Assembly (NCBI GenBank): GCA_001002285.1
Contig: LCLX01000001.1
Coordinates: 30 to 64,029 of the forward strand
Length of the DNA stretch: 64,000 nt
Reading direction: 5' to 3'
Source of the DNA: Microgenomates group bacterium GW2011_GWC1_46_15
GTDB lineage: Bacteria > Patescibacteriota > Microgenomatia > UBA1400 > UBA12028
Below are positions 14,940-41,161 of the stretch, one piece after another; position 1 is the first letter of the stretch; every line of letters begins with the position of its first letter. A model generated the notes under the pieces. The model ran no database searches, was not told the DNA's origin, and was given only the letters and a program-made list of their open reading frames with translations. The position numbers and the translations under genes were made by a program.

Positions 14940-15160
14940 TCTCTACTCCAATTGTGGGAACTGTGGACAACCCCAACTGAGTTATCCACTTACCCACAAA
15001 ATTGGGCGGTTATCCACAAAGTTATCCACAGTTTTCCACATAGTATTCAACACAAATATCTCCCGAATTACTTGAAGGGCCGTCGATGAGTTATCCATTT
15101 ACCCCCATTCCTACTACTAGTACTACTATTGTATATACGTTTAAGAAAGACACGAACAGC
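14940..15160. promoter_or_regulatory. oriC: DnaA-box cluster plus AT-rich unwinding region between dnaA and dnaN
   Basis: TTATCCACA at 15010-15018 and 15022-15030; variants TTATCCACT (14982-14990), TTTTCCACA (15032-15040), TTATCCATT (15091-15099), TGTGGACAA (14962-14970); AT-rich tactactagtactactattgtatatacg at 15101-15130. Confidence 0.75.
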
Positions 15161-15244
15161 CCCTCCAGGAACTCTCTTTAACAATCCTTCTCAAAACTAT
15201 CGGTACTTCACAAACCTCCTTTACACGTTTACAATTCGGGCACG

Positions 15245-16357
15245 ATGCAATTCACTATTCTCCAAGAAAATCTTTTAAAGGCAACACAAGAAGTTCTTCG
15301 TTTCATTCCATCAAAAACACCGCTTCCGATTCTTTCATGTTTTCTTCTTGAGGTAAAAAGGGGGGAAATATCCTTCTCCGCAACGGACTTGCAGACAGGG
15401 ATCAAAGAAACCGTTGATGGAAAAGTGATGAGTACGGGGGCTACCGCGCTTCCAGCAAGAGTATTTGTCGAGTATATTTCTTCACTACCAGCCGGAACAA
15501 TTGAAGTCGAAGAAAAAGATGCAGAGCTTCATATAACAGCGGGGAAAGCGTCAGCAGTGTTTCAAATATCTTCTCCAAAAGACTTTCCACAGTTCCCAGA
15601 AAAAGAAGGGGAGGATGTTGTTTTGCCGCGCGAAGCATTTCTCTCGATTATAGAAAAAGGAGGACTTGCCTCTGGTGTGGATGAAACGCGCCCCGTATTC
15701 TCATCGCTCTATATTGAAGGAAAAGACGGGGTATTGTGTGGGGTGAGCACCGACGGATACAGGTTGGCACGGAAAGAAGTAAAGATAAAAGGGTGGAAGT
15801 ACGACGGCATCCTTTTGCCAACCAAAGCCGTCCGCGAAATTTCCCGCATCATTGACCGCCTGCACGTGGAAAGCGTTGGAATAAGCCTCTCTGCACGCTT
15901 AGGGCAAGTCTTTTTTACCGCCGGCGATTTATTTTGCAGTGTTCGGCTCATCGAAGCAAGTTTTCCGGACTACGACACAATTATCCCAAAAGAATTCGGT
16001 GTTCAAATAAAGTTTCAGCGTGAAGAATTTTTGTCTGCACTCAAAACTGCGCTTGTATTTGGAAAAGAAAGTTCTGGAATTATTAAACTTTCCATTCAAA
16101 AGGACTCGTTGTTGATTACTGCATCATCAAACGCTGTTGGGAAAAATGAAACACAGGTTGATATAGAAAAAATTACGGGAGAAAATGCAGAAATTGCGTT
16201 CAATGGGAAGTATCTTCAGGATTTACTGTCCGCGGTTACCGGCGAGACCGTGTGGTTTGGAATGAATGAGCCATTAAAGCCTGGAATGTTCAAAATTGAA
16301 GGTGAAGAAGGATTTGTGTATATCGTGATGCCGTTCCGTATGCAGGGGGAAAGTTAG
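15245..16357 (+). CDS. dnaN: DNA polymerase III beta sliding clamp
   Basis: 370 aa; MQFTILQENLLKATQEVLRFIPSK... three-domain clamp pattern; follows dnaA. Confidence 0.95.
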   Translation: MQFTILQENLLKATQEVLRFIPSKTPLPILSCFLLEVKRGEISFSATDLQTGIKETVDGKVMSTGATALPARVFVEYISSLPAGTIEVEEKDAELHITAGKASAVFQISSPKDFPQFPEKEGEDVVLPREAFLSIIEKGGLASGVDETRPVFSSLYIEGKDGVLCGVSTDGYRLARKEVKIKGWKYDGILLPTKAVREISRIIDRLHVESVGISLSARLGQVFFTAGDLFCSVRLIEASFPDYDTIIPKEFGVQIKFQREEFLSALKTALVFGKESSGIIKLSIQKDSLLITASSNAVGKNETQVDIEKITGENAEIAFNGKYLQDLLSAVTGETVWFGMNEPLKPGMFKIEGEEGFVYIVMPFRMQGES

Positions 16358-16359
16358 AT

Positions 16360-18288
16360 TTAAGCGGCCGCCTGCAGTTGTGGTTGCGATAGCGGTTGAC
16401 CAGCCGGCGCTGGAGCGTTTTGTGCCTGGCCAGAGAGTTGCGAGGCACTTCGTTTTTGTAATATTTCTTCAGGATTCGTTGTAATAAGGTCGTGTTCGTC
16501 TTGCGACGCAACGACGCGGATCGCGACATGATTTTGTCCGGCAAAAAATAATCCTTCACCAACGTCGCTTGCTATCAAAAACCTCCGCTCTCCTTCGGAT
16601 AAGAAAAAGACTTGTGAGAGATAGGGGATCGCGGCAGACGACTGTTTCATTAAAAATTGAATGGACGAGTTTGTAACAATCGCTTTTCCAAAATCGTTGT
16701 TCAAAAAGTCCTCAACGTCCTGTGTGATCGTGGTGATGCCAAGATAATACTTGCGCGCGCGCTTCGCCATGGAGTGCAAGAAACTTGCGGAGTCTTTGTA
16801 CTTCATAAAGTACCACGCCTCATCGACGATCAGAATGCGTTTTTTAAGGTTTTTCTTAATGCGTGTCCAAACAAAATCAAGGATTAAAAACATCGCAATT
16901 GGGCGAAGTTCCTCTTCCATTTCTTTCACGGAAAACACAGTGAATTGATTTGTGATGTTGATGTTTGATTTTTGATCGAAAATACCACGGAATGACCCCT
17001 TGATGAATTTCTCCAGGCGCGCGGCGAGATTTTGGGACTCTTGGTTTTCCATTCCAAGAAGCGCTTTATATAAATCTTCCATAAGCGGAGGTTCATTGGT
17101 TTGTGTTGCCGGATCGGGTGTAATTCCTTTGGCCTTGTATGCCGCGATGAGCGCGCGGTCGAGCATCGCGTCTTCGGTTGGAGAAAGCTCTCCCATCATA
17201 ATTTTTAACAACGTATGAATGGAAATAATCTTCATTCCAAGCTCATTTTCACCCTCTTCATAGACCGCGCTCAAATCAAACGGATTGATTTTTTTAGGAG
17301 AACTAAACGTGAAGTTGATGTACTCGCCGCCAACGGATGTGCAAAGATCTTCGTACTCATGTTCGGGATCAAGAACAATGAGTTCGACATCAAACATGAG
17401 CTGGCGCAGAGCCTCAAGCTTCACGGCGTATGATTTTCCAGCACCGGATTTTGCAAACACCACCATGTTCGCGTTTTCCATACTAAACCGGTCGAAAATC
17501 ACCAACGAATCATTGTGCTCATTTACGCCGTACAACAGGCCCGTGTCGCTTGTGAGTTCGGCTGAAGTGAATGGGAATGTTGTCGCAAGCGACGTGGTGT
17601 CCATGTTGCGCGTGATCAAAAGTTTGTCCACGCCGATCGGGAGGGTGGTCTTAAACCCATCTTCAATTTGAAGCGCAGCAACCTTGCTCACAATAAGTAA
17701 TGAGCCGAGCATGGAGCGGATTTTATTTGTTGTTTTATTGAGTTCTTCCAGTGAAACATCAGAAATAGTGATATACAGTCCAAACTGGTAGAACCGTTCT
17801 GCGCCTTTTGCCAACTGTTCCTGGATTGATCGCGCGTCTTCTAGCTTAATTTCGGTATTAATATTACTCAGTTTTCCTTGCCGAATATCCGAACTAATTT
17901 CAGCCTCCATTTCAGTGATTTTCCGCCGTAAATCATCCAGAATCTTCTTTGATTCAACAGGGAAAATATGCATAGAAATGTCCAATGAATGCGGGAAATT
18001 AATGAGTGGGGAGAGCCAGTTTGCCGGAACGGTTCTTGGGTAGCCAGCGACAAATAATGTGCGGATAAACACATCATTGATTTTTTGGTATGAAAAATCC
18101 ACCTCAATTGCTTCCGGCGCAATAATGTCTTGGATGCTCACAAGGCCGGATGAAAATCGGTCAAGATCTTCTTTTGAAGGAATATGGGGCTGAGTACTGG
18201 ACGGGACAGTCGCCCCGCCGCTAGAGCTAGCGTTTTGCTGCGCAGAGTCTTTTTGTTTTGGTTTTAAAAACGGAAATGTGATGGGCAT
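16360..18288 (-). CDS. VirB4/TraE/PrgJ-like type IV secretion ATPase
   Basis: 642 aa; N-terminal DIIAPEAIEVDF...FVAGYPRTV typical of Gram-positive VirB4; Walker A FAKSGAGKSYAVK, Walker B ILIVDEAWYF. Confidence 0.8.
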   Translation of the reverse strand: MPITFPFLKPKQKDSAQQNASSSGGATVPSSTQPHIPSKEDLDRFSSGLVSIQDIIAPEAIEVDFSYQKINDVFIRTLFVAGYPRTVPANWLSPLINFPHSLDISMHIFPVESKKILDDLRRKITEMEAEISSDIRQGKLSNINTEIKLEDARSIQEQLAKGAERFYQFGLYITISDVSLEELNKTTNKIRSMLGSLLIVSKVAALQIEDGFKTTLPIGVDKLLITRNMDTTSLATTFPFTSAELTSDTGLLYGVNEHNDSLVIFDRFSMENANMVVFAKSGAGKSYAVKLEALRQLMFDVELIVLDPEHEYEDLCTSVGGEYINFTFSSPKKINPFDLSAVYEEGENELGMKIISIHTLLKIMMGELSPTEDAMLDRALIAAYKAKGITPDPATQTNEPPLMEDLYKALLGMENQESQNLAARLEKFIKGSFRGIFDQKSNINITNQFTVFSVKEMEEELRPIAMFLILDFVWTRIKKNLKKRILIVDEAWYFMKYKDSASFLHSMAKRARKYYLGITTITQDVEDFLNNDFGKAIVTNSSIQFLMKQSSAAIPYLSQVFFLSEGERRFLIASDVGEGLFFAGQNHVAIRVVASQDEHDLITTNPEEILQKRSASQLSGQAQNAPAPAGQPLSQPQLQAAA

Positions 18289-18314
18289 AGCAATGCACTC
18301 ATGGTATCAGGCAT

Positions 18315-19337
18315 ATGTATGATGTTCAACACCGCGCCCCACGCCTACAATTTAATGCAATCCAATCAACAACACAAAACTATCTCGAAATCTACGACGT
18401 TACAAACGATCTCGTCATTTTGCGCGATGGAACCGTGGCGCTTCTCCTGACGACAAACTCGCTCAACTTTGGACTGCTTTCCGAAGAAGAACAGGACTCG
18501 ATCATTTACACGTACGCCGGCTTATTAAACTCACTCTCTTTCCCCATTGAAATCGTGATTCGGTCGCAGAAAAAAGATATTTCCGTGTATCTTCATTATG
18601 TTGAAGAACTTGAACAAAAAAATCCGATGCCAATTCGCAAAACGCAGATCCGCCGGTACCGCGAGTTTATTCAGGAGTTGGTAAAAGAACGGAATATTTT
18701 AGACAAGAAATTTTATATCGCAATTCCATTTGCGGGAGCGTCGCTATCGCTTTCCGGCGCGATTCCGAACATTAAGAAAGAAAAAACGTTTTCTTTAGAT
18801 AAAGCGTATGTTCTCGAAAAAGCAAAAACAGACCTGGAGCCCAAACGCGACCACTTGATCGCGCAGTTTGCCCGCATCGGACTATATGCCCGCCAGCTCA
18901 CAACGCAGGAAATTATTCATCTCATGTACACGATTTATAATCCTGGGACGTCTGAAGGACAGAGAATGACGGATACGGGAAGTTACACAACGCCGCTTGT
19001 TGAGGCGAGCTTGCAAGGAGTGATGAGTCAGCCAGCGCTGCAGTCGTTCACAAAAGATGCGGATATGGGTGAAAAAGTAGCACCGACACCAGCGCCACAA
19101 GCGCAAACCCCAGCACAAACGCCCCCACCAACTCAATTGGAAGAAAAACCCATCGTGCAACAATCCGCGCAACCACCCCAATCAGAAAAAACGAGTGGAA
19201 CTGTCCGCATTATTCCTCCAGGAGAGCCGGTAAAAATTCAGCCACCGACAATGCCAATAACGCCAACGATGCCAGGAGCATCAGTACCAACACCATCAAC
19301 GCTCCAGAATTTACAAACTCCAACACCGGTGGTTTAA
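18315..19337 (+). CDS. hypothetical protein with P/Q/T-rich C-terminal tail, divergent from VirB4-like gene
   Basis: 340 aa; N-terminal globular part, low-complexity PTPAPQAQTPAQTPPPTQ tail; T4SS context. Confidence 0.35.
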   Translation: MYDVQHRAPRLQFNAIQSTTQNYLEIYDVTNDLVILRDGTVALLLTTNSLNFGLLSEEEQDSIIYTYAGLLNSLSFPIEIVIRSQKKDISVYLHYVEELEQKNPMPIRKTQIRRYREFIQELVKERNILDKKFYIAIPFAGASLSLSGAIPNIKKEKTFSLDKAYVLEKAKTDLEPKRDHLIAQFARIGLYARQLTTQEIIHLMYTIYNPGTSEGQRMTDTGSYTTPLVEASLQGVMSQPALQSFTKDADMGEKVAPTPAPQAQTPAQTPPPTQLEEKPIVQQSAQPPQSEKTSGTVRIIPPGEPVKIQPPTMPITPTMPGASVPTPSTLQNLQTPTPVV

Positions 19338-19397
19338 TTTTTCGCGCGGATTTCCAGAGGCCCAAGAATAGCGTTATTCATCGAAAGCGTGATTGGA

Positions 19398-20396
19398 TCA
19401 AACGTAAACCCGTCTTTTTCTGTGGTAATGCGGTACTCGCCAGACTTGAGTGGGGATGTTGAGAAAAACTGACCAAGTCTCCAACACCATGCCAACGACA
19501 ACGTTAGGGGTCGTTGGTGTTTTTGGAAAGGGGAGCATTGTGTTTACCGTAGCCTTCGTTGCGGTATCCGTTGCTTGTGATGAAAACGCAACTTGATCGG
19601 AATGATAGTGAAGCACATCTGGCGCTGCTTTTTGTGGTTGTAGCGCTTGTTCAGGCTTAATTCCTTGAGCAGTGTCACGGGCAACAGAAACAGGTTTTTC
19701 TCGCGCAATAGTCACGGTTTTATTTATCCCGGGAAGCACGCGGTCTTTCAACTCTCTTTGTTCTTTGATTTTTGAGAGTGAAATAATGCCGCGCATTTTT
19801 GACGGATCCTGCGCGTGTAAACTATGCATCGTAACAACGAGCGATGGTTTTTCAGCATACTCATCAAGCATATTTGGTCCACCACTGGAAACGGTAACAT
19901 TCTTTGCCGCGGGAGTAGTGTCGTATAACTGCTGAAGCGCCGCGACCCTATCATATATTTCTTGATCAAACTCATCCCGCACGACTGGTTTTGCGATGGA
20001 CTCAAAATACGCCTGTGCACGCGATGACCTGCTTTTTGCCGAACTCATCGGAAGTGGCGCAGTAGCCACGGTTTGCGAGCGCGTATATGAAAAAAGATCC
20101 GGCACGCGCAATGATTTTTTCCAGTTGAACTTTGTTGGGTTGTAAATGGCGCGGATAAACGCGAGAAACCATTGGTCGAGTGGCCGTTCCTCAAGCGGGA
20201 GAAACGCGAGCGCTGCTCCAGCTAGGACAAAGATAATAATAAGCGGAAACTTAAAAATCTGAGGAAGATTCGAAGAATATGTTAAAAATGCAAGCACGCC
20301 GCCCGACGCCAGTTCAAAAAACTGTTTCAGTGTCATGTTTCCAATGAGATGGAACTCGTATGACGTTACATTCTGTGGGACAGGATGCTCTTGCAT
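19398..20396 (-). CDS. PrgI-like (VirB3-analogue) T4SS membrane protein with long C-terminal extension
   Basis: N-terminus YEFHLIGNMTLKQFFELASGGVLAFLTY...PLIIIFVLAGAALAFLPLEERPLDQWFLAFIRAIYNPTKFNWKK matches PrgI family pattern (T-x-RQ, two TM, RP-x-D-x-W, K-x-x-W). Confidence 0.55.
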   Translation of the reverse strand: MQEHPVPQNVTSYEFHLIGNMTLKQFFELASGGVLAFLTYSSNLPQIFKFPLIIIFVLAGAALAFLPLEERPLDQWFLAFIRAIYNPTKFNWKKSLRVPDLFSYTRSQTVATAPLPMSSAKSRSSRAQAYFESIAKPVVRDEFDQEIYDRVAALQQLYDTTPAAKNVTVSSGGPNMLDEYAEKPSLVVTMHSLHAQDPSKMRGIISLSKIKEQRELKDRVLPGINKTVTIAREKPVSVARDTAQGIKPEQALQPQKAAPDVLHYHSDQVAFSSQATDTATKATVNTMLPFPKTPTTPNVVVGMVLETWSVFLNIPTQVWRVPHYHRKRRVYV

Positions 20397-20429
20397 GAAA
20401 ACATTGTAGCAGAGAAGAAGGGCGACCGA

Positions 20430-21434
20430 TTATTGCGTAACCGCAGTGGTGATAATTTCGATGTGAGTGGGAAGCCCCTGTGCATTTTTTGCCGTTCCAC
20501 CAAAGCGGTAATAGGGAATATATGTTTGATCGGATGAAGTAAAACGGTACTCAATGTGTACAGAGTCAAACACAGCTTCGGTAAGAGCGCTAAGTGATAA
20601 AACATTTCCACCAACGATAGCAGAAGAAACAACTGTTCCTTTTCCACCCCGCAAGTTTTCAAGAGCCTGATTCATAGAAAGAGGAGTAATGTTTTTATCT
20701 TGTGTGGGTTGTGGTGGAACTATACTAAACTTCAGCTTTGCAATAGTCCCATCTGAACGAACAAAGGCCAATGCGGTTGGAGCAATTGTGCTTTCAAAGA
20801 AAACAGGGTATTCGTTGAGTGAAAATATAAAAGGAATGCTTGCAAGGTTTGCAACGATCCGATCTGCTTTTTCAAGATCATGTGTTTCTAAGAAAAATAA
20901 TGTATTTTTTCTATCAGGCAACAGGTGTTCTGTGTTAAAACCCAAAGAAGCAAGAAGGATTTCGGCGTTTTGAATACTGTTTGTAAATGTTTGTTCCAAC
21001 TGAAAGGTTGTTTTTGACGGCGATCCTCCTTGGCGGGAATACTCGACAGAACGGGAAACTTTGCTGTATGAAATTTCTTCCTGCGTTGATGGATTTGTCC
21101 ATACTCCCGCGTATGTTCCGGGTGGAAGAGCAAGTTTTTTAGCAAGAGCGGAAGCAAACTCTTCTGGTAACTGAGTTTTTCCGCTGGTATATGTTGCAAG
21201 TGTTAGGGGAAGAGTTGGCGCTGTTCCGGTGAAAGAAAATGATTGTATTGAAAGTTTTGGAACAATAGCAGGAATGTTTTGTTCAGCGCCTTCGGGCAGG
21301 GTGGGTTTTTTAGAACGTGAAAAGAGCACAAACCCAATGGCGAGCACCATGATAACAATACATAGAATAATCCAAGATGATTTTTTTGAAAAAGTGAAGT
21401 TCATAATGTACTCGTATTGTATCCCGGATCGCAT
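20430..21434 (-). CDS. hypothetical membrane-anchored protein (T4SS-like operon)
   Basis: 334 aa, N-terminal TM, no known motif; overlaps upstream gene by 34 nt (operonic). Confidence 0.35.
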   Translation of the reverse strand: MRSGIQYEYIMNFTFSKKSSWIILCIVIMVLAIGFVLFSRSKKPTLPEGAEQNIPAIVPKLSIQSFSFTGTAPTLPLTLATYTSGKTQLPEEFASALAKKLALPPGTYAGVWTNPSTQEEISYSKVSRSVEYSRQGGSPSKTTFQLEQTFTNSIQNAEILLASLGFNTEHLLPDRKNTLFFLETHDLEKADRIVANLASIPFIFSLNEYPVFFESTIAPTALAFVRSDGTIAKLKFSIVPPQPTQDKNITPLSMNQALENLRGGKGTVVSSAIVGGNVLSLSALTEAVFDSVHIEYRFTSSDQTYIPYYRFGGTAKNAQGLPTHIEIITTAVTQ

Positions 21435-24400
21435 TTCGACCGAACTTCTCCATCCATTATTGGTGGTTCCTGGACGATTTCATCACGGTATGCCCCGTGA
21501 ACCTCATAGTGTACGTGTGGCCCCGTTGAATGGCCGCTACTATTTACCGTTCCAATAACGTCTCCAATAGAAACAGAAGCCTCTGTCCCCGCACCAAAGT
21601 TACCAAAATCGTTGAGGTGTCCAAAGAAAAACACGAGATCTTTTCCGTTTATTGTTGACTTAAGGATGACGTGGTTTCCGTACCCACAATCTATGCCGAA
21701 TGCACTAGCAATACTACAAATTCCAAATCCTTCTGGGTAAAATGTTGCAACTCCGGGATACGGAGCGTATACCGGAGCACCCGTTGGCGCACCAATGTCA
21801 ATCGCTTGTCCACCAAGTCCTGGTCCTACACCACACACATTTTGCCCGGAAAGCCCCGTTTCACACCCATGATGAACGCCGTGAGTGCCACCACCGAGCC
21901 GTGAAGAATAAACATCGAGTCCATTCACTTGTCCGCTCGTTGGCCAGCATCCCTGATTACCAACTCCAGTTGCGTATATTGCAGAACGAATACTGCCTTC
22001 TACTGATGTTTGAAATGCCAACTGCCGTTGTTGTTGTGTAAGTGCCCCCCATCCCAAAACTCCAAGCCCTGTTGTGGCGACAACCGCTCCGGAGAATCCG
22101 CCGACCGTTCCAAGCCCCGCGCTTAACTGAGTCATAAAAGATGAAAATCCGGCACCAAGCCCAGTGAAAAATTTTGTTAGTCCACCTAGGGCCCATTTTC
22201 CAACAGCAGCAAAAAGATTTTTTGTTACTCCAAGGAGACCCGAAAGATTTGCGACTCCTTGTGAAAAAAACCACTTTGCTCCTTGCCAAATTGCCCATCC
22301 AATAAGACCCAAAATAAGTGCGATCGCGGCCATAATACCGGCAAGGATCGCGAGCAACAACTTGAGTTGTTTCCCAGTCATCTCAACAAGCTTGTTGTAT
22401 GCGTCTTGAATAATTGGGCCAAGAACTGGAATTTGCGAAGCAATTTGAATAACTTGGTTGAGTTTTTCAATGGCGGCAGCGGCTTCAGGTCCAAGAACGC
22501 CAGCGGCTAATATCGTAAGCACAAATTGACCCAACTGCCGGTCAAGATTGTTTTTATCCTGCGCGCCAGTAAACATTGGCGAGTTTTGTCCGGCAGAAAA
22601 TCCCTCACCCATGAATTCGCTCAACGCGCTTCCGGCCTCAAACAGCCCATCGTCACCGATATTTTGAAGATACAAAAACTGCACAAAATCCTGGCTCACG
22701 CCGTACTGCATAAAAAGCTGGTACAGCTGAGTTGTTTTCTCTTTTTGATGAAGCTGTTTCCATACCGTTGCAGAAAACGGTGTCGTAGGCGCGAATTGAT
22801 TCACTAAGTATTCCTGTATGCCTTGTGGTTGGCCAAGAAAATTCTGTATATGTTGATTGAGGGTTCCGCGGAAACGAGCACCGGCCTGATTTGGCTGAGG
22901 GGAAGTGCCATACAATCCCGCGGCAACCTCCTTAAATCCGAACGCCTGCAGCGCTTTTTCAACACCTAGCGTTACTTGCGGCCGCACCCCGTGTGTGGGA
23001 TCGGCATACAATACGCCGTTTTGATGCGTGAGCGCATAGATTTGTTGGCGGTGCGCGGAAATATAATGCAAAAAGAATGACTGCCAAGAGAATGCTTGCA
23101 CTCCGGCGGCTTTTGCGCGTGCGATCTCGGCCTCAAGATTTCTTTGTATCGTTGGACTTTGAAAAAGATCACTAAACAACCGTTCAAACGCTTTTTCATC
23201 CATCCGATCAACATTTGCTCGTGTAATTGCCAACGCTTTAAGTCGCAAAAGTACACCGTTAATATCTTGTTCGGGCACATGAATAGTTGTTAAAAATGTG
23301 CGGAGGTTTTTTTCAAGTGAGTCGGTATATGCCTCAGACGAGCGGATATCGGAGCCCGCTTTTTGATTAAACTCCGCGATTTTTTGAAGATTTGCTTCAA
23401 GCTCTTTACCATTTTCTTGATTTTTTAAAACGCCGCTGAATGTTGCGTTATCAATATTCTGTGCGATGGTTGCGGGTGTAATGGAGGCAAACTGCTGGGC
23501 AAACCGCTTTTTTGCCTGCACCTTGTTTTCAAACAATTTTCCATTTGTGGAGTTGAGCGCATCGAATAGCGCGTCTTGGAATGATCTCTTTGTTTGCGCG
23601 CGAATCATGATATCGCGGAACAACCGAAGTCGGGCGCCCGTTTTTCCAACATCTTCTGGCCGGAGTTTTTGCAGTTCAAGCAAAATAAATGGATATAACT
23701 CGTCGCGCGACTTAAAAAATGTGTTACGGAATACCACAAACTGCTGGTCATTTACACCATACGAAGCAGCGATACCACGAAGCACCGCCTCACGGATGCG
23801 TTCAGCCTCTTTGAGATACGCAATGTTAAACTTGTCGACGTCTTGCGCACGCGCATACAGGTCTTTATCAATAGGCTGGGGCGGTTTTTGTTCCTCCTGT
23901 TTCTTTTTCTCCTTTTCCTCCTTCTCTTTCTTCTTGTCTTTTTCGATGATGGGAATTGGAATACCAGCACCACCGCTAGTTTCTCCTTGTGCCTTCACAA
24001 CTTCTTCTGCAGTCTCTTCCTCTTTTTTGAGTTCTTCTATCGCCCCAATGGGCAAAACGATTGACTGCGCTTCTTCCAAACACGCAACCAGCAACGCCGC
24101 ATCATCAATGTCATTCTGCTTGCGCGCCGGCGTATATCCCTCAAGTTTTACCGCGCCAAATCGCGCGCTTTGCGCCCGTTCATTAAATACTTGCTGCTTA
24201 TGAAAAATGTCGAGATCAAACTCTTCGGGAATTTGCAGGCGAATGGTAATCAGCAAACTCAAGAGTTTATTGAGTGAAATATGATATCCGCCATCACTGT
24301 CCGGTGTTACGGCGAGCTCGGCGAGCAGAACATCGCGCCCCGCATTTGTCTGAAGCTCATGCAAGAGATGTGCCGCATTCTCAATATCGCGCTGAGAAAA

Positions 24401-24508
24401 CGGAACTTTTTGCAAGCGGTACACAACACTCTGAAGCTTGTGATTTGTAAGCCGTACTTCTGGAAAAAACTTTCGCGCAGCGTCTGCCATATCCGTATTG
24501 TATCTCAA
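21401..24508 (-). CDS. large multi-TM protein with C-terminal M23 (LytM-like) peptidoglycan peptidase domain; probable T4SS cell-wall hydrolase (PrgK/VirB1 functional analogue)
   Basis: 1035 aa; K/E-rich coiled region, Gly-rich TM bundle, C-terminal GYGNHVILKS...GHL...GTVNSSGHSTGPHVHYEV (M23 HxxxD/HxH motifs). Confidence 0.7.
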   Translation of the reverse strand: MRYNTDMADAARKFFPEVRLTNHKLQSVVYRLQKVPFSQRDIENAAHLLHELQTNAGRDVLLAELAVTPDSDGGYHISLNKLLSLLITIRLQIPEEFDLDIFHKQQVFNERAQSARFGAVKLEGYTPARKQNDIDDAALLVACLEEAQSIVLPIGAIEELKKEEETAEEVVKAQGETSGGAGIPIPIIEKDKKKEKEEKEKKKQEEQKPPQPIDKDLYARAQDVDKFNIAYLKEAERIREAVLRGIAASYGVNDQQFVVFRNTFFKSRDELYPFILLELQKLRPEDVGKTGARLRLFRDIMIRAQTKRSFQDALFDALNSTNGKLFENKVQAKKRFAQQFASITPATIAQNIDNATFSGVLKNQENGKELEANLQKIAEFNQKAGSDIRSSEAYTDSLEKNLRTFLTTIHVPEQDINGVLLRLKALAITRANVDRMDEKAFERLFSDLFQSPTIQRNLEAEIARAKAAGVQAFSWQSFFLHYISAHRQQIYALTHQNGVLYADPTHGVRPQVTLGVEKALQAFGFKEVAAGLYGTSPQPNQAGARFRGTLNQHIQNFLGQPQGIQEYLVNQFAPTTPFSATVWKQLHQKEKTTQLYQLFMQYGVSQDFVQFLYLQNIGDDGLFEAGSALSEFMGEGFSAGQNSPMFTGAQDKNNLDRQLGQFVLTILAAGVLGPEAAAAIEKLNQVIQIASQIPVLGPIIQDAYNKLVEMTGKQLKLLLAILAGIMAAIALILGLIGWAIWQGAKWFFSQGVANLSGLLGVTKNLFAAVGKWALGGLTKFFTGLGAGFSSFMTQLSAGLGTVGGFSGAVVATTGLGVLGWGALTQQQRQLAFQTSVEGSIRSAIYATGVGNQGCWPTSGQVNGLDVYSSRLGGGTHGVHHGCETGLSGQNVCGVGPGLGGQAIDIGAPTGAPVYAPYPGVATFYPEGFGICSIASAFGIDCGYGNHVILKSTINGKDLVFFFGHLNDFGNFGAGTEASVSIGDVIGTVNSSGHSTGPHVHYEVHGAYRDEIVQEPPIMDGEVRSKCDPGYNTSTL

Positions 24509-24514
24509 ACATGA

Positions 24515-26293
24515 TTACGAGATTGAAGAAAAAGAGGCGGACATCACCCGATTGAGAGGAAGAAGGGTGGATTGAATAAGCTCGCTCGCTCCAACGCGGC
24601 CAAACTGAAAAAAATCTGTTGCGGTTGGATCAGAAAACTCCCCGGCCCCCGTTGTTGTGCGCGAATCATCAGCAAAACTATTCTTTTCCCACGTCAGCTC
24701 GCACCGCCAACACACACCGCACTCACCAACAAAGTCTGTGTTTCCGCACGCGACACATGTTCCTTGTTTGAAGTTCTGGTCAAACCGTTCTTTGCCGATC
24801 AACTGCGCAATTTGATCCTTAGTAAACACGTGGCCACGGTCTTTAATCGCGGTAAACAACTCAGCCGAACCCATGCTCGGCAACCCAAGCCCCTGCATAA
24901 ATGAGGTGCTGTTTGCCATTTCGGTAAACCGCGTGAGTCCGCCAAAACTTCCAACCGTACAATCTAAACCAGAGTACATGCGGGATAAAACATTTCCCAT
25001 AGAAGGAGCCTTTTCAACCAAAGAGAGAAGATGAGTATTGCGTTGTTTCTGTAGTTGAATATCTGTCGTGTGGGCAGAGCGGTTTTCTGGATTAAAACTT
25101 TCTGTATATTGTGCGAGTGCTGCTTGAGTATCAAATGTTTTTTTCTTGTGCAGAAACGTATTCATGACGATGTCGAGGGCAACACGATTGAGGACGAACT
25201 CCCGCGTGTGATCAATGATGCCGTGCGCGCGGAGACGTTCAAACCGCGCATATTCTTCCAATAATACCGTCGAAATATACTCTGTGGCAGATTGAATAAC
25301 TGGAGACAGTTCAGAAAACTGACCAAGCGCAGTTTGTTGTTCTATAAAAAGTTGTTTGAATTTTTCATGCGATTGGAGCTGGGCAATCATCTCGCCAAAA
25401 AACTCCATCGCTCCTAAGGGCTGATAGTGTGAATCAACTGTAAAGACGGTATTCATAATATCGTTTTCGGTTGGCCGCACTGCAGAATCTTTTTGAGCAA
25501 ACTGCAGTGCCCGCACTTGTTCTTCATGCCCAAGCCGATTAAGGTATTGATGAATCAATACAACTCGCTGTTTTCCTTCAGGAAGCCAGGGAACATATAC
25601 CTCTTGCCACACATTCCAAAATGCTGTTTTCCCGGGATACACATCAAGATTTTGTGGAAGAACAAAAAAATGTTTGGGCCCAACAAGTGGCCGGCGCGTT
25701 TCATCTACATGTTTTTGCAAATCAATGTCATGAGGGAGGGCGCCTTCATATGGGACAAGGCCCGCCGGGATTGTCTCTCCATCTACATATTCTAGAAGCG
25801 CATGTGGACATATAGTATTGAACTCCTGAATAACTGTAGCAACACGTTCAACCTGTTTTTTTTCCAGAACAAACCGCGCGCGATATTCCGCATTTGCCGC
25901 GTGTTCAACCGCCCGCGCGCTTAAATCACGCAAATCATCATTTCCGTGATCCGGACTCAGGAGGCGCAACGCCCCATCTTCTTGTGGTTCGATAGTAAGA
26001 TAGCGCTGATCGTATACGGGAAAGCCAAGAATTTCTTTGAGTGCGTCGGTAAGTTGACGGCCGACAATTGCAGAAAGTTCAAACTTGATCTTTTCATATC
26101 TTTGTTGCGGTGACTCATGTTCGTATTTTTTGAAAAGATTGGGAAGAATGTAATCAAACACGTGGGAAAGGTTGAAGTGAGCGGCAACTTCGTGATTATT
26201 TTGTTGTCGTTTGGGCTGTTCAAATAGTTCCGATTGTCCAAATTGGTTGCGTTGATCAAACTGAATAGACTCAATAGTAGTGGTGCGCGCCAT
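24515..26293 (-). CDS. hypothetical protein with C-terminal zinc-ribbon (CxxC...CxxC)
   Basis: 592 aa; CVACGNTDFVGECGVCWRCE near C-terminus; first gene of minus-strand T4SS-like operon. Confidence 0.4.
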   Translation of the reverse strand: MARTTTIESIQFDQRNQFGQSELFEQPKRQQNNHEVAAHFNLSHVFDYILPNLFKKYEHESPQQRYEKIKFELSAIVGRQLTDALKEILGFPVYDQRYLTIEPQEDGALRLLSPDHGNDDLRDLSARAVEHAANAEYRARFVLEKKQVERVATVIQEFNTICPHALLEYVDGETIPAGLVPYEGALPHDIDLQKHVDETRRPLVGPKHFFVLPQNLDVYPGKTAFWNVWQEVYVPWLPEGKQRVVLIHQYLNRLGHEEQVRALQFAQKDSAVRPTENDIMNTVFTVDSHYQPLGAMEFFGEMIAQLQSHEKFKQLFIEQQTALGQFSELSPVIQSATEYISTVLLEEYARFERLRAHGIIDHTREFVLNRVALDIVMNTFLHKKKTFDTQAALAQYTESFNPENRSAHTTDIQLQKQRNTHLLSLVEKAPSMGNVLSRMYSGLDCTVGSFGGLTRFTEMANSTSFMQGLGLPSMGSAELFTAIKDRGHVFTKDQIAQLIGKERFDQNFKQGTCVACGNTDFVGECGVCWRCELTWEKNSFADDSRTTTGAGEFSDPTATDFFQFGRVGASELIQSTLLPLNRVMSASFSSIS

Positions 26294-26296
26294 AAA

Positions 26297-26321
26297 AACC
26301 CCTCTTGAGGAGGGGATAATG
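26297..26321 (-). terminator. rho-independent terminator-like hairpin (CCCCTCCTCAAGAGGGG + T5 on minus strand)
   Basis: Perfect GC-rich stem followed by TTTTT on the minus strand, immediately 5' of the 592-aa gene start. Confidence 0.45.
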
Positions 26322-26607
26322 TTTCAACCAAGCGCACTCGCGTGCGTGTGCATCTCCCTCGCTCGGAGATCAACACAATGTCTCGTTCCTGACTTTCGAG
26401 GCTAGGGGTTGCGTTGTCGCTTTTACCACCAGCGCTCGATTCACAGTTGCGGCACAGTCCGCGATTTGCACGCGGTTCCGAGTAAGAAAGAGTGTAACAT
26501 GAAAAAAGATTTGCGAAAAGTCTTACAACTCAGCCCCTCAACTTAGCCTTTCAACTCAGCCTCGCAATGTAGCCCCTTCGACTCTTGTGTGGCCACCGTA
26601 AACTACC

Positions 26608-26652
26608 ACCATAAACACACTTGACTCTATTCCCAATTGCACATATAATCAT
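26608..26652 (+). promoter_or_regulatory. consensus sigma70 promoter (TTGACT-17-TATAAT) with overlapping palindrome TGCACATATAATCATGTGCATATG (putative AbiEi autoregulatory operator)
   Basis: -35 at 26608-26613, -10 at 26631-26636, inverted repeat spanning the -10 and start codon of abiEi. Confidence 0.6.
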
Positions 26653-27303
26653 GTGCATATGGAAATAAACTATAAATCCTTGATTTCAGAAAGTACTACC
26701 CCCTTTTTTACCAGACAAAATCTAAAAATACTTTTAGGACGCAATCGACGCACAGTGGACTATCGCATCAAGTCTTTAATCAAAGACGGAATATTGGTCG
26801 CGGTGAAATCCGGATTTTATATCAATAATGTCTTGTATAAAAGCACTTCTACCCCCAAAGACATGGTTCTCTATATAGGTGGGATATTGGTGCCACAAAG
26901 TTATGTTTCTCTGGAATATGCGTTGTCTTTTTATGGTTTTTTGGCTGAGCAGGTATACACCGTCACATATATCACAACGCAAAAGACCAGAAAGTTTCAA
27001 AATAACCTTTTCAGTTTCTCGTACCGGAACATAAAACCGGCGCTGTATTGGGGATATATGAAACGCCCTTTTGGAGACTTGTCTTATCAGATGGCCAGTC
27101 CCGCCAAAGCAATGTTTGATTTTCTCTATTTGACTCCAGCGGGGACTGATCAAGCAACCAGAAATTTGTTGTTTGACTCACGATTCAATTGGGGAGCGTT
27201 CTCCGCCAAAGATAAAAAGGAATTTCAAGAGATTATAGAAAAATCCACATCAAAAAAGATGGCAAATATACTGAAATACCTGACACAGGAGAATGTTATA
27301 TGA
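26653..27303 (+). CDS. AbiEi-like antitoxin/transcriptional regulator (type IV TA / abortive infection)
   Basis: 216 aa; N-terminal wHTH-like region; 4-nt overlap with downstream AbiEii gene. Confidence 0.55.
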   Translation: MHMEINYKSLISESTTPFFTRQNLKILLGRNRRTVDYRIKSLIKDGILVAVKSGFYINNVLYKSTSTPKDMVLYIGGILVPQSYVSLEYALSFYGFLAEQVYTVTYITTQKTRKFQNNLFSFSYRNIKPALYWGYMKRPFGDLSYQMASPAKAMFDFLYLTPAGTDQATRNLLFDSRFNWGAFSAKDKKEFQEIIEKSTSKKMANILKYLTQENVI

Positions 27304-28052
27304 ACAACCAAGGCATGTATCAAAGGAATGTCATCAAAGAACGTTTGCAGGATGAAATTCTACGTTTTATCTACAACAACGATGTGTATAGCGAATTAAT
27401 TTTTACGGGGGGGACGTGTCTACGTAAAGTATATGGTCTTAATCGCTTGTCCGAAGATCTGGATTTTGATTTTTCTCCCGATGTCTCATTTGACACTAAG
27501 ATATTTGCCAAAGACGTAAGGACATATCTATCGGCGGATACCAGAATATCCGGCAATAATAATACAGTGTTTGTCAAATTCCCCGACAACATTTTTGTAC
27601 GATGTGACTTTTCCCCGATTATCTTAGGGGAATATCAAATACAAAAGAGCTTGATTATGGCTGACAATTGTCAATTTTTTGTTAATGCATATGATTTACC
27701 CACTCTTTATGCCAACAAAATAGCGGCTTTTTTAAGTAGAAACTTTTTTAAAGGAAAGTTTCAAAAAATTCCTTTCAAAGGCCGCGACATTTATGATTTG
27801 TATTGGCTCCTTCAGCTTTCGGCAAAAACAGGATACACCCTCAAACCGAACATCCCACGATTAATGGCCCTTTTGGGAAAAGATTCTTTGCTGGAAATAA
27901 AGAATTTTGTCAAAGACAAGATATGTGCAGTAGATCCGCAGTTTGTTTACAATGACCTGTCCCCGCTTATTGAATCTAAAGAGTTTTTGGATCAGTTTTT
28001 ACAAGATTTTGGGAAAACAATTGTCAATCAACTAGACTATGTTTTAACATAA
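27300..28052 (+). CDS. AbiEii/AbiGii nucleotidyltransferase toxin (DUF1814)
   Basis: LIFTGGTCLRKVYGLNRLSEDLDFDF matches GGTAL...R.SEDIDF signature of AbiEii. Confidence 0.75.
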   Translation: MNNQGMYQRNVIKERLQDEILRFIYNNDVYSELIFTGGTCLRKVYGLNRLSEDLDFDFSPDVSFDTKIFAKDVRTYLSADTRISGNNNTVFVKFPDNIFVRCDFSPIILGEYQIQKSLIMADNCQFFVNAYDLPTLYANKIAAFLSRNFFKGKFQKIPFKGRDIYDLYWLLQLSAKTGYTLKPNIPRLMALLGKDSLLEIKNFVKDKICAVDPQFVYNDLSPLIESKEFLDQFLQDFGKTIVNQLDYVLT

Positions 28053-28100
28053 AAGTAATACATATTGACAAAGTATTACTTTATATAGTAGTATTACCAC

Positions 28101-28331
28101 ATGCACACAGCAACAATAACACAAAAAGGGCAAATAACGATTCCCTTGGTCTTGAGGGAAGCCTTTGGATTAAGAGCGTACGGTAAAGCCAGGCTGGAAC
28201 AAGGAGATGGTTTCATCAAGGTATACGCGCAGGAGGACATTTTGGATTTAGTTGATACATTTGTTCCCAAAGTGAAAAAACCACTCATGAAAACCCGCGA
28301 GGCGTTTGAAAAGAAATATACGAGGTTTTAA
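28101..28331 (+). CDS. AbrB/SpoVT-type antitoxin (VapB-like)
   Basis: 76 aa; ITQKGQITIPLVLREAFGL swapped-hairpin motif; overlaps PIN gene start (ATGA). Confidence 0.65.
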   Translation: MHTATITQKGQITIPLVLREAFGLRAYGKARLEQGDGFIKVYAQEDILDLVDTFVPKVKKPLMKTREAFEKKYTRF

Positions 28332-28750
28332 TGATCTATTTTATAGATACAAACATTTTTTTGAGAGTTCTCATACGGGAAAACGAAAGCGCGTTTCAGC
28401 AGAGTAAAGCCTTTTTAGAGATGGTAAAACGCAATGTATATGACGCGGTAACAAGCACGATGGTGATTTCCGAAATAGTGTGGACTCTGGGCTCCTATTA
28501 CAAATTTCCAAAGAAAAAAGTACTACGGACAATACAAGGAATACTTCATCTCAGCGGGCTAAAAATCGTGGACGAATACGATATAAACAAATCTCTTGCA
28601 CTCTATGAATCCCACACATGTAAATACATAGACGCCATGATCGCAGGAATGCCGGGGGTACAGTCGGGCGCCTGGAACATCGTTTCCTATGATAAGGAGT
28701 TTGACAAATTGGGTGTCAAAAGAGTGGTGCCCGCAAAATTGTTGAAATAG
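28331..28750 (+). CDS. PIN-domain ribonuclease toxin (VapC-like)
   Basis: 139 aa; N-terminal FIDTNIF acidic motif, PIN-like spacing of D/E residues. Confidence 0.75.
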   Translation: MIYFIDTNIFLRVLIRENESAFQQSKAFLEMVKRNVYDAVTSTMVISEIVWTLGSYYKFPKKKVLRTIQGILHLSGLKIVDEYDINKSLALYESHTCKYIDAMIAGMPGVQSGAWNIVSYDKEFDKLGVKRVVPAKLLK

Positions 28751-28756: not shown

Positions 28757-30169
28757 TTGTTATTCCCCTCCTTTTTCGTTAGTATGGAAGCTACTATGAG
28801 TGATGGAAACTTTGAGGGCGGAGCTCCGTCCACATCAGCACCAATAGCTCCGGTAGTAGATACGCCGGCGGTGCAGCCACCTCCATCCAATGAGGTCTCT
28901 GTAGAACAAGAGGCAACCAAGCGGTGGACTCCACCAAATCTTGATGACATTCCAGAGATGAAAAACGCAAAAAAACTTGGAGACAAAGAAACAAGCACAG
29001 ACTATGCGGCGTTCAAAAAAAGAGATAAGGATGGGAGCCTCATTCACGTTGATTTATCTGGAATGACCGACGAACAGAAAGAAAAAATCGATGGAATAGA
29101 CACATACTACGAGTTTGGGGGACAAACCGCGTATCATGATTTTGCAACATGGGCGGCCTCCGAAAAAGTTGGATTGTATGAGGAAAGGAAAAGCGAAGGC
29201 GGCCAAACAATAGGATTTCTTCCAAAAGAAGGAGTAAGTGTTAAAGACGCGTTTGATAGATTTCTCATTGAATCAGATAAAGGAAAAGCTATCGTCGCTT
29301 CAAAAACGACAGAAGTAGAAAAACAACGCGTGCGCCAAGAAGCAGATGGAGAATTTCTTGAGGGGATTGAAAAAGCGGTCGAAGACAGGAATTTGGGGGA
29401 GTTTACGCGACTGTATAGAGAAAGAATACAAAACGTCCTTAGAGATGGGGGGTTGAGCGATCAAGAAGTTGAAGAAATTTTTTCTTCGCAGAACGCATTT
29501 GTCCAAACGCTGAGAGAAATTGCAAGTAAAGGTGATCAAGATACAGAGGAAAAACCAACTGATGATGGAGTAAAAAAAGAACCCAAAACCCCTCTTGAAA
29601 AACTACTAGCGGGGGGAGATGAAGGAAGGCTAAAGAAACTACGAAAAAAACTTGGAGAACTTGATTTTTCTGCAGCGACAAACTTTGGAGAATCAATAGC
29701 CGCCGCAATTGAAAATGAAATGGACCTAGGAATACTTATTGATTATTTCTGCACAGGAAGGTATTACGACAAAATTGCGAAGAGCTTGGGATATAAATCA
29801 AAAGAAGAACTTGGGACAAAAGGAATTGGTCCCTCGGAAATTGAAGACTATACAAAAAGAGATCCCAAAAAAGAACTTCTCCTTTTAGCCAAGGGATTGG
29901 AAGAGGCGAGAATCATATCGGAAGAAGAATATAGAACCTATCTTGAGAGCGATTCCGCAGAAATATTAAAAAGTGAAGAATTTAGAAAAAAATTATCCAA
30001 TATTTCGAAAGAAAATAAACATAAATTTGATGAAGGGATTGTGAAAGAAATGAATAGGCTTGGACATGAAATCTCAAGAGAAGGGTTTGCATATTTAATG
30101 ATGATTCCTGAAAATGTAAAAAATCTTGGAGGAAATCAAACAAAAAACGAAGAACATGAGCAAGAGTAA
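28757..30169 (+). CDS. hypothetical acidic protein (ORFan), AT-rich island
   Basis: 470 aa, E/K-rich, no signal peptide or known motif; distinctly lower GC than flanks. Confidence 0.4.
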   Translation: MLFPSFFVSMEATMSDGNFEGGAPSTSAPIAPVVDTPAVQPPPSNEVSVEQEATKRWTPPNLDDIPEMKNAKKLGDKETSTDYAAFKKRDKDGSLIHVDLSGMTDEQKEKIDGIDTYYEFGGQTAYHDFATWAASEKVGLYEERKSEGGQTIGFLPKEGVSVKDAFDRFLIESDKGKAIVASKTTEVEKQRVRQEADGEFLEGIEKAVEDRNLGEFTRLYRERIQNVLRDGGLSDQEVEEIFSSQNAFVQTLREIASKGDQDTEEKPTDDGVKKEPKTPLEKLLAGGDEGRLKKLRKKLGELDFSAATNFGESIAAAIENEMDLGILIDYFCTGRYYDKIAKSLGYKSKEELGTKGIGPSEIEDYTKRDPKKELLLLAKGLEEARIISEEEYRTYLESDSAEILKSEEFRKKLSNISKENKHKFDEGIVKEMNRLGHEISREGFAYLMMIPENVKNLGGNQTKNEEHEQE

Positions 30170-30191
30170 TATTGCATGGTAAAATAACGGT

Positions 30192-32738: not shown

Positions 32739-32749
32739 TTACTTCTGTC

Positions 32750-34531: not shown

Positions 34532-34611
34532 ATTTTACTGGCATCGTGAAGGGAACGCAACACACCTCTTTCTAGTAAAAAGACATCTTGACAAAAATAA
34601 ATCATTGTATA

Positions 34612-34952
34612 TGATGGTCATATACAACATGAAACCAAAAACAATCCTATTTCCAGAGTTATTACGGTTTGAATGGGATCGGGGAAATGAAAGAAAAAAT
34701 AAAGAGAAACATGGAGTTGAACAAAAAGAATGTGAAGAAATTTTCTTCAACGATCCACTCATTCATCTTGATATTAAACACTCGATTACGGAAACACGCC
34801 TTTTTGCTTTGGGAAAAACACGCGAAGGGAGATATTTGTGCCTTATTTTTACGGTAAGAAAGGAATGTGTGCGGGTGATTTCTGCTCGAGATCAAAGTAA
34901 GGAAGAGCGATCAGCATATACAACACATAAAAGAAAGGGAAAGAAGAGGTAA
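34612..34952 (+). CDS. brnT: BrnT ribonuclease toxin (DUF497)
   Basis: FEWDRGNERKNKEKHGVEQKECEEIFFNDP...ISARDQSKEER matches BrnT motif (FEWD..K...N..KHGV; ISAR). Confidence 0.75.
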
Positions 34953-34957
34953 ATAGT

Positions 34958-35236
34958 ATGAAAAAAATGAAAAAATCTATTCCGGTCTTCAAAAACGAGC
35001 GCGATGAAGCGAGATTTTGGTTGTCGCACGATACGACCCAATATATTGATTGGAGTAACGCCGCGCGCGCCGAGTTTCCCAACCTCAAACCAACCACGAA
35101 AACGATTACGTTGCGCCTTCCCATGATGTTGTTGAACAGCATTAAGAAGTTGGCAAACAAAAAAGACGTGCCGTATCAATCGCTCATGAAGGTGTTTCTT
35201 GATGAAAAAGTCAGAGAAGAAATGCTCACACCATGA
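34958..35236 (+). CDS. brnA: BrnA antitoxin
   Basis: 92 aa; ITLRLPMMLLNSIKKLANKKDVPYQSLMKVFL RHH-like C-terminus typical of BrnA; 5 nt after brnT. Confidence 0.7.
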   Translation: MKKMKKSIPVFKNERDEARFWLSHDTTQYIDWSNAARAEFPNLKPTTKTITLRLPMMLLNSIKKLANKKDVPYQSLMKVFLDEKVREEMLTP

Positions 35237-35248
35237 TAGAATCAGGGC

Positions 35249-39149: not shown

Positions 39150-39183
39150 GGGGTCAATTGTAGCATACACGAAAACCAAAAGA

Positions 39184-39213
39184 CCTCCCTTGCGGGAGGC
39201 CTTCCAATTTCAA
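39184..39213 (-). terminator. rho-independent terminator (CCTCCCGCAAGGGAGG + TCTTTTGGTTTT on minus strand)
   Basis: Hairpin plus U-rich tail downstream of pilin gene 39258-39593. Confidence 0.5.
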
Positions 39214-39257
39214 ATCCCCTTTCAGAGGATTCTCTCTGTACACGGAAAAATTAAATT

Positions 39258-39593: not shown

Positions 39594-39637
39594 ATTCCTC
39601 CTTTATTCACACGTATACCTGTATTGTACGGCGTGTT

Positions 39638-39949: not shown

Positions 39950-39983
39950 AAAAGTTTCTTTCTATTTTGTCGTTCCACCATTA

Positions 39984-40711: not shown

Positions 40712-40717
40712 ATTAAT

Positions 40718-41140: not shown

Positions 41141-41161
41141 AATAAGTTCTTCTATCGTGCG

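Follow-up and report, generated by a model that had tools for sequence, protein, structure and literature searches.

What does a type IV secretion system (T4SS) do when its genes adjoin those of chromosomal replication and no relaxase stands near them? We addressed this question for a block of six genes at positions 16360-26293 of a window, by which we mean the whole stretch of 64,000 nucleotides (nt) analysed here, taken from contig LCLX01000001.1 of Microgenomates group bacterium GW2011_GWC1_46_15. The block encodes a VirB4-type ATPase, a TrsD-like protein, a PrgI-like protein, a membrane-anchored protein, a large protein ending in an M23 peptidase domain and a zinc-ribbon protein. We consider it very probable that this block is the core operon of a chromosomal, vertically inherited T4SS of the Patescibacteria clade, derived from conjugation machinery of the mating-pair formation class FATA (MPF-FATA) and located near the replication origin (oriC) in Candidatus (Ca.) Pacebacteria.

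A split VirB4 in a six-gene block

An initial annotation of the sequence had counted five long open reading frames (ORFs) in the block; there are six, and those that it listed are all present where it had placed them. Its assignment of the 642-amino-acid (aa) ATPase to the VirB4 family holds. This protein matches NCBIfam NF045971 (VirB4-like conjugal transfer ATPase, CD1110 family) at 387.6 bits against a cut-off of 325, Pfam PF19044 (P-loop_TraG) at 93.9 bits against 25.8 and AAA_10 at 44 bits, aligns with the solved Gram-positive-type VirB4 ATPase domain PDB 4ag5 (E=2.9e-45), and carries a Walker A motif (AKSGAGKS) at residue 279 and a Walker B motif (ILIVDE) at residue 485. This is not the picture of an FtsK/HerA-type ATPase lacking a PrgI companion: the HerA/DUF87 match is far weaker (31 bits), the family profile scans returned no FtsK match for the protein, and a PrgI-family protein is encoded in the same block (see below).

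The stretch DIIAPEAIEVDF...GYPRTV, which had been read as the VirB4 N-terminus, is indeed present on the 642-aa protein; the true N-terminal part, however, lies on another polypeptide. The ATPase covers model positions 176-734 of the 752 in NF045971, the CagE_TrbE_VirB profile (PF03135) scores 20.7 bits on it, under the cut-off of 21, and the N-terminal CagE_TrbE_VirB/TraC domain is not found on this chain. The adjacent 340-aa TrsD-like protein matches NF045971 at positions 29-171 (E=3.5e-4) and NF045975 (VirB4_plasma, the Mbov_0397 VirB4 model) at positions 107-282 (E=6.6e-9). It also matches PF11130 (TraC) weakly (E=0.0017) and the TrsD model NF041427 at E=0.0019, where its 18.1 bits against a cut-off of 200 do not make it a member; PF26593 (TraC-like) is recorded for its homologues. 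Since the TrsD-like protein and the ATPase cover complementary positions of a single model, VirB4 is, as judged from these profile alignments, split into a protein with the TrsD-like N-terminal domain and the 642-aa ATPase, like the pGO1 subclass of MPF-FATA.

The trsD gene also modifies the first description of the locus, in which the ATPase stood next to a minus-strand operon. The operon is real, but virB4 is itself on the minus strand, and the plus-strand trsD between the two had been overlooked. We compared the proteins of the window with those of 85 related loci, a biased sample (the labels L001-L093 denote the related loci and sibling assemblies used for comparison). Of 77 related loci, 76 have trsD directly upstream of virB4 and in the same orientation; the gene is inverted only in the lineage of the window and in L005, a locus from another sample with about 91% nucleotide identity. 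No inverted repeats beyond chance-sized matches flank the inverted gene, and an invertase switch for trsD was rejected in their absence.

A conserved operon beside dnaA and dnaN

The gene order of the block recurs in about 76 related Microgenomatia loci, typically as a codirectional series of genes for a protein of about 550-650 aa, a big protein of 900-1600 aa, a protein of about 330 aa, PrgI, TrsD and VirB4. Such recurrence across dozens of genomes is far beyond chance. PrgI is linked to virB4 in 72 of the 85 loci of this biased sample, dnaA lies within 10 kilobases (kb) in 72 and dnaN in 70. Within the window, the virB4 stop and the end of dnaN are 2 nt apart, dnaA lies upstream of dnaN, and rnpA, yidC and jag follow farther to the left. 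Because dnaN and dnaA stand immediately to its left, we place the block next to the chromosomal replication origin.

Homologues of the VirB4 protein number in the thousands. The best 120 are 70-99% identical to it, and those that are named belong almost entirely to Patescibacteria, or Candidate Phyla Radiation (CPR), among them Pacebacteria, Woesebacteria and Cerribacteria, with a few that are evidently mislabelled. A genome scan for VirB4 gave the same picture, in that the informatively named records are Patescibacteria/CPR; about half of the records are titled 'uncultured Pseudomonadales bacterium'. Conservation drops steeply along the operon from VirB4 to the 592-aa protein at its other end. 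Identity to the window protein is 70-88% for VirB4 across Microgenomatia, 38-72% for TrsD, 26-59% for PrgI and 21-37% for the 334-aa protein, while the big protein can be aligned mostly in its M23 domain only and homologues of the 592-aa protein are detectable in few loci only. An ATPase that retains 70-88% identity across a whole class suggests vertical inheritance under strong constraint.

No family match to a type IV coupling protein (T4CP) or a relaxase was obtained among the window ORFs scanned with Pfam and NCBIfam, which included all ORFs of at least 500 aa, in line with the earlier statement that VirD4 and relaxase are absent from the window. No second protein in the window carries both Walker A and Walker B motifs; a hidden second ATPase or T4CP among the large uncharacterised proteins was rejected for lack of such a pair. 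A functional conjugation module, consisting of a relaxase and VirD4/TcpA, was thus not found within the 64-kb window. The block is chromosomal, lies near dnaA/dnaN and has no relaxase match around it in the window, a combination that characterises the Patescibacteria clade of T4SSs. An Rfam scan of the window returned two tRNAs only, both far from the block, and a promoter scan gave 13 matches against 14.7±4.0 in shuffled sequence, hence no excess.

The PrgI-like protein and structural variation around trsD

The 332-aa protein that had been described as PrgI-like, a VirB3 analogue, matches Pfam PrgI (PF12666) over residues 5-87 at 36.0 bits against a cut-off of 27, and has a strong transmembrane (TM) helix at residues 43-71 preceded by a weaker hydrophobic stretch. 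The intact form of the protein, seen in L005 and L087-L090, has 381 aa and ends in a CarboxypepD_reg-like domain. A comparison of the window with sibling assemblies (blastn against L087-L091, with inspection of the sequences) accounts for the difference. Apart from two points, positions 15001-27404 are 100.000% identical to several assemblies of the same population. At 19480|19481, 82-83 nt are missing from the window, so that the CarboxypepD_reg-like domain at the C-terminus of the PrgI-like protein is out of frame. At 18344|18345, 56-58 nt are missing, including the native trsD start (MAALQFNAIQ...), and the divergent intergenic region of 105 nt in the siblings is reduced to 26 nt in the window.

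Both prgI and trsD are intact in four sibling assemblies. Further variation is found at this location: L091 has a different deletion of 22 nt in the same place, L089 and L091 carry or enter a tandem duplication of a 1288-nt unit joined at the 15-nt direct repeat CAAAACAAA[C/A]AGACT, and the contigs L093, L092, L090 and L086 end at or near the deletion points. The variation around trsD is either strain heterogeneity or assembly-graph ambiguity. The segment of 1137 nt between the two deletion points was also considered as an invertible cassette; this is implausible, as prgI reaches into the segment with its last 49 codons and the start of trsD is not in it.

The M23 protein and its putative partner

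The 1035-aa protein had been called a polytopic protein ending in an M23 peptidase domain, and of these two features it is the second that is borne out. Peptidase_M23 (PF01551) matches residues 901-1004 at 47.4 bits (cut-off 28.7), M23 chains in the PDB match the domain at E of about 3e-6, and residues D904, H964, H998 and H1000 are kept in 43-45 of 45 family members, from which the domain is likely to be active. Its polytopic nature is doubtful: there are only two to four hydrophobic, Gly-rich segments in the central part, at about residues 659-681, 707-748 and 797-815, an architecture that is repeated in 58 positional homologues. The protein begins with a region of about 650 residues that lacks a signal peptide, and local profile iteration revealed a conserved N-terminal module of about 280 residues in the big protein of 21 loci. 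We rejected a VirB6/PrgH-like identity for the 1035-aa protein, given two to four segments against at least five TM segments and no Pfam or NCBIfam profile match outside M23; the resemblance is one of position.

The gene for the 334-aa protein overlaps that for the 1035-aa protein by 34 nt. The protein is membrane-anchored, as had been annotated, by a single N-terminal TM helix that is evident from hydrophobicity and occupies residues 17-39 in an AlphaFold2 model. This model, built from 140 sequences (predicted local distance difference test (pLDDT) 89.6, predicted template modelling score (pTM) 0.79), consists of the TM helix, a disordered linker and three alpha/beta domains, and the predicted fold is, with high confidence, PepSY/YycH/YycI-like. 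A VirB8-like identity, which would require the NTF2-like fold of VirB8, PrgL, TraM, TraH and TcpC, was rejected at the level of the fold, since that fold was not the best structural match. Word-indexed searches found only one homologue with the single sequence and four with a 40-sequence alignment, whereas an exhaustive profile search recovered at least 543 representative clusters, all of about 320-350 aa and without annotation. A Pfam scan of 40 members of this family gave no consistent family.

Of the loci whose upstream region is complete (58 in all), 43 encode both the 334-aa family and the M23 domain, 14 encode neither and one is discordant. L007, which is closely related to the window, belongs to those 14 and suggests that the two were lost together at least a second time. 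A big protein without M23 is encoded in L003, L013, L015, L016, L020, L033, L034, L041-L043, L053, L071, L081 and L007. In the same subgroup the PepSY-like gene of about 330 aa is replaced by one for an unrelated protein of about 190-245 aa. By analogy with YpeB-SleB and PepSY propeptides, the 334-aa protein may be a functional partner of the M23 hydrolase, or else a scaffold. A search of the literature linking PepSY, T4SS and M23 found no papers.

The 592-aa protein, the first of the operon, is soluble and has the zinc ribbon that had been noted (CVACGNTDFVGECGVCWRC, residues 513-531, of the form CxxC-x11-CxxC), a motif that 10 of 25 positional homologues share. The protein is fast-evolving, it has no match in Pfam, NCBIfam or the PDB, and its single-sequence AlphaFold2 model (pLDDT 35.1) is unusable.

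Neighbouring genes

The features of the window are collected in Table 1. Two divergent sets of T4SS-associated genes are separated by toxin-antitoxin modules, whose stretch has a guanine-cytosine (GC) content of about 0.40 against about 0.46 elsewhere. The AbiE pair in it is common to L005 and the sibling assemblies, and a second AbiEii-like gene lies at 54604-55308.

Table 1 Features of the block and of the neighbouring parts of the window
Feature	Position	Strand	Evidence
dnaA	13320-14894	+	Pfam
dnaN	15245-16357	+	Pfam
642-aa VirB4-type ATPase; middle and C-terminal ATPase parts of the split VirB4	16360-18288	-	NF045971, PF19044, PDB 4ag5, Walker motifs
340-aa TrsD-like protein with Pro/Thr/Gln-rich tail	18315-19337	+	NF045975, NF045971, weak NF041427 and PF11130
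Out-of-frame remnant of the C-terminal beta-sandwich domain of the PrgI-like protein (RLGQFFSTSPLKSGEYRITTEKDGFTFDPITLSMNNAILGPLEIRAKN*)	19334-19480	-	Three-frame translation, alignment to L005 and L087
332-aa PrgI-like (VirB3 analogue) membrane protein, last 27 residues out of frame	19398-20396	-	PF12666
334-aa bitopic protein; N-terminal TM helix and three predicted PepSY/YycH/YycI-like alpha/beta domains	20430-21434	-	AlphaFold2 model
1035-aa protein with C-terminal M23 peptidase	21401-24508	-	PF01551, hydrophobicity scan
GCWP motif and M23 metallopeptidase domain of the 1035-aa protein (residues about 853-1012)	21473-21952	-	PF01551, PDB M23 chains
Central hydrophobic Gly-rich membrane region of the 1035-aa protein (residues about 659-815)	22064-22534	-	Kyte-Doolittle scan
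592-aa soluble protein, first gene of the operon; C-terminal zinc ribbon (nt 24701-24757)	24515-26293	-	CxxC...CxxC motif
Two toxin-antitoxin-type modules: AbiEii toxin with upstream partner ORF, and PIN-domain gene	26653-28750	+	Pfam
Second T4SS-associated block: 470-, 848- and 1153-aa proteins and 593-aa polytopic protein	28757-38710	both	Position, TM scan
470-, 848- and 1153-aa proteins	28757-32738 and 35249-38710	+	No Pfam or NCBIfam match
593-aa protein, about 7-8 TM segments	32750-34531	-	Topology; no family match
Seven tandem VirB2-like T4SS pilin genes	38715-41482	-	PF18895
PilO- and PilN-like type IV pilus assembly genes, directly after the pilin array	41925-43561	-	

In the second block, the topology of the 593-aa protein makes it a stronger VirB6-type candidate than the 1035-aa protein. 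The 1153-aa protein has a hydrophobic N-terminal segment (residues 23-52), and a homologue of the 470-aa protein is divergent from the T4SS operon in L001. Composition is strongly skewed around 28-32 kb, where the GC skew reaches +0.15 to +0.19. In the pilin array, six of the seven genes were profile-scanned (all except 40718-41140): three pass the PF18895 cut-off of 26.6 bits with 38.9, 36.2 and 31.5 bits, and three more score 23-24 bits. A 251-aa protein at 47513-48268 on the minus strand ends in a pilin domain that scores below threshold. Farther to the right, a tRNA-Ser gene with anticodon ACT (56392-56475, plus strand; 7-nt loop TTACTAA between perfectly paired ATAGT/ACTAT stems) adjoins one for tRNA-Ser(TGA). 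For AGY codons bacteria normally use GCT, and an anticodon with A34 is unusual among them.

Proposed function and alternatives

With the components identified as above, we infer their assembly and role as follows. The TrsD-like protein and the 642-aa ATPase would together form a motor, presumably hexameric, which the PrgI/VirB3-like protein, from what is known of its family, would tether to the membrane. The 1035-aa protein would be anchored by its central segment, so that its M23 endopeptidase could open the peptidoglycan locally in a VirB1-type role. The 334-aa bitopic protein, probably translationally coupled to the 1035-aa gene, may act as partner or regulator of the hydrolase or as a VirB8-like scaffold that spans the wall, and the 592-aa zinc-ribbon protein may be a cytoplasmic accessory. 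Combined with the nearby polytopic protein as a candidate channel and with the seven VirB2-like pilins, the machine could form a pilus-bearing translocon.

What such a translocon would serve is suggested by a relative. For Ca. Southlakia epibionticum ML1 to grow as an epibiont, its homologous cluster SEML1_0006-0019 is essential (Wang et al. 2023, PMC10633639); in that cluster, the genes for PrgI and a hypothetical protein, at least, were scored as essential (PMC10633639). Given this essentiality, and since neither relaxase nor T4CP was found in the window, the translocon would function in host interaction or protein export rather than in conjugation. It is also conceivable, if only as a tentative suggestion that we hold to be less probable than not, that the 334-aa family is a dedicated partner of the M23 domain, an inhibitor or chaperone that, on the model of YpeB-SleB or PepSY propeptides, gates the local cutting of peptidoglycan as the T4SS assembles, or else that it replaces the VirB8 scaffold in Microgenomatia; and, separately, that the trsD region is a hotspot of structural variation, in which inversion and microhomology-mediated duplication and deletion modulate the split-VirB4 motor in natural populations.

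Several observations weigh against a complete and active machine of this kind. With prgI frameshifted and the trsD start lost, the copy in the window could be impaired. In the HxxxD motif of M23, the first zinc-binding His does not fall in a conserved column; its spacing is variable, with H876, H879 and H880 as candidates. The proteins put forward for VirB6 and VirB8 are candidates by topology and position, and the co-occurrence of the 334-aa family with M23 may go back to two or three evolutionary events only. A coupling protein or relaxase might lie outside the 64-kb window, and the role of the system in members of Microgenomatia is extrapolated from sequence.

The initial annotation had compared the block to CPR T4SS-like machines proposed for DNA uptake or host interaction, as opposed to plasmid conjugation. 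The profile matches, the synteny and the literature support the CPR T4SS and its separation from plasmid conjugation; it is the DNA-uptake option that has been weakened. A machine like archaeal Ced or Helicobacter pylori ComB, importing host DNA or nucleotides, would make sense in Patescibacteria, in which nucleotide synthesis is absent (PMC10633639), and in the class ABY1, T4SS loci lie near comF, recG and radA (PMC12102498). Weak matches to CedB (46.9 bits) and CedD (22.1 bits) point in the same direction, but the CedB score is far under the cut-off of 700 bits, and no competence genes were found beside the block in the window. Moreover, as a review summarises it (PMC12857230), competence in Southlakia needs type IV pili and ComEC, and cells that lose comEC are no longer competent but stay viable. 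Because the T4SS is essential there while comEC is dispensable, we consider DNA uptake an unlikely function of the block.

The chances are slighter still that the block is a true DNA-conjugation system, serving an integrated conjugative element as its transfer module, with relaxase and coupling protein outside the window. Its best profile matches are indeed to conjugal-transfer families (CD1110, Mbov_0397 and TraC), and most genomes of Patescibacteria have VirD4-like genes, usually at a distance from virB4 (PMC12102498). Against this, no integrase, relaxase or T4CP was found in 64 kb, the same chromosomal place beside dnaN/dnaA is occupied in about 70 genomes, and the identity of VirB4 tracks the class. 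Relaxases are nearly absent from Patescibacteria, with only 109 in 3,035 genomes, and the T4CP homologue of Southlakia is not essential, whereas its T4SS is (PMC12102498).

That the system is decaying toward pseudogenisation in this genome, as the inverted trsD, the two deletions and the duplications and other deletions among the siblings might suggest, is highly improbable, given that four siblings identical elsewhere keep both genes intact, that all six ORFs are long and open with the PrgI domain proper untouched, that the inversion is shared with a lineage at about 91% identity whose genes are intact, and that the deletions are perhaps assembly artefacts at a graph ambiguity.

Comparison with known systems

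Archaeal Ced, represented by CedB, resembles the window in having a VirB4-related ATPase without a relaxase and in its weak profile match; CedA-like partners were not detected, however, and with a score so far below the cut-off the likeness amounts to general VirB4 homology.

The resemblance to monoderm MPF-FATA systems is closer. We compared the CD1110-type VirB4 of Clostridioides difficile CTn2, TrsD-TrsE of pGO1/pSK41, PrgI/PrgJ/PrgK of pCF10, and pIP501. The window shares with these a CD1110-family VirB4 that passes the family cut-off, a TrsD with a shorter VirB4 as in pGO1, a VirB3 of the PrgI family, a membrane-anchored wall hydrolase and the lack of outer-membrane core components. It differs in that the window yielded no relaxase, T4CP or adhesin and no NTF2-type VirB8 homologue was detected, in its VirB2-like pilins, which are absent from the Gram-positive systems, and in a hydrolase of the M23 rather than the SLT+CHAP type. 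Furthermore, its locus is chromosomal, origin-proximal and vertically inherited. For the 334-aa protein, the closest known counterparts are YycH/YycI (regulators of WalK) and the PepSY-domain proteins that partner hydrolases, namely YpeB with SleB and the propeptides of M4/M36 peptidases. It is not similar to them in sequence (9-14% identity) and has no Pfam match; its context is a T4SS, whereas YycH/YycI belong to a two-component system and YpeB-SleB to spore germination.

The block fits best with the T4SSs described from the ultrasmall Patescibacteria. Their VirB4 clade is monophyletic and nested in MPF-FATA (Quinonero-Coronel et al. 2025, PMC12102498); TrsD is the commonest associated component, PrgI/VirB3 is also present, arrays of 2-11 VirB2-like pilin genes occur especially in Microgenomatia and Saccharimonadia, and the loci lie near dnaA, dnaN, rnpA and rpmH in Paceibacteria and Microgenomatia (PMC12102498). 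The window shows the same features, with a TrsD-like gene directly upstream of a VirB4 that is probably nested in MPF-FATA, then PrgI/VirB3 and the large membrane protein farther upstream, a VirB2-like pilin array, a position beside dnaA/dnaN as in Microgenomatia and no relaxase or T4CP found nearby. One difference concerns PrgI, which is frequently linked to virB4 in our biased sample, whereas in the published survey VirB3, VirB6 and VirB8 of Microgenomatia were poorly detected, VirB6 and VirB8 to the point of not being found, or were seldom linked to virB4 (PMC12102498).

The Southlakia cluster has the same order: first comes a big protein of 998 aa, next PrgI, then, where TrsD would stand, a hypothetical protein of 293 aa, and last a 612-aa protein (1839-nt gene) that matches the VirB4 structure 4ag6 (PMC10633639). 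Compared with that cluster, the window belongs to Microgenomatia rather than Saccharimonadia, its trsD has the opposite orientation, toxin-antitoxin modules interrupt the locus, and an additional gene for the 334-aa PepSY/YycH-like protein stands between the big protein and prgI. The wall hydrolase of the window (M23) is part of the big membrane protein instead of having a separate gene downstream of virB4.

Since the published description (PMC12102498) matches the locus point by point, and since the sibling assemblies GCA_003484165.1 and GCA_003524785.1 (100% identical sequence; Ca. Pacebacteria, about 0.9 megabases) are VirB4-positive Microgenomatia in its table, the system is already known from papers of 2023-2025, and the window is a further instance of it within a published dataset. 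The Patescibacteria T4SS is important as the first T4SS shown to be essential for its carrier (review PMC12857230). To its description for Microgenomatia we add the conserved six-gene operon order, the predicted PepSY/YycH-like, not VirB8, fold of the 334-aa family with its tight M23 co-occurrence, and evidence of a hydrolase fused to a large membrane protein. Only the PepSY/YycH-like assignment of the 334-aa family, its linkage with M23 and the structural variation around the inverted trsD are new, and mildly so. These additions provide concrete hypotheses for the reconstitution or imaging of the machine.

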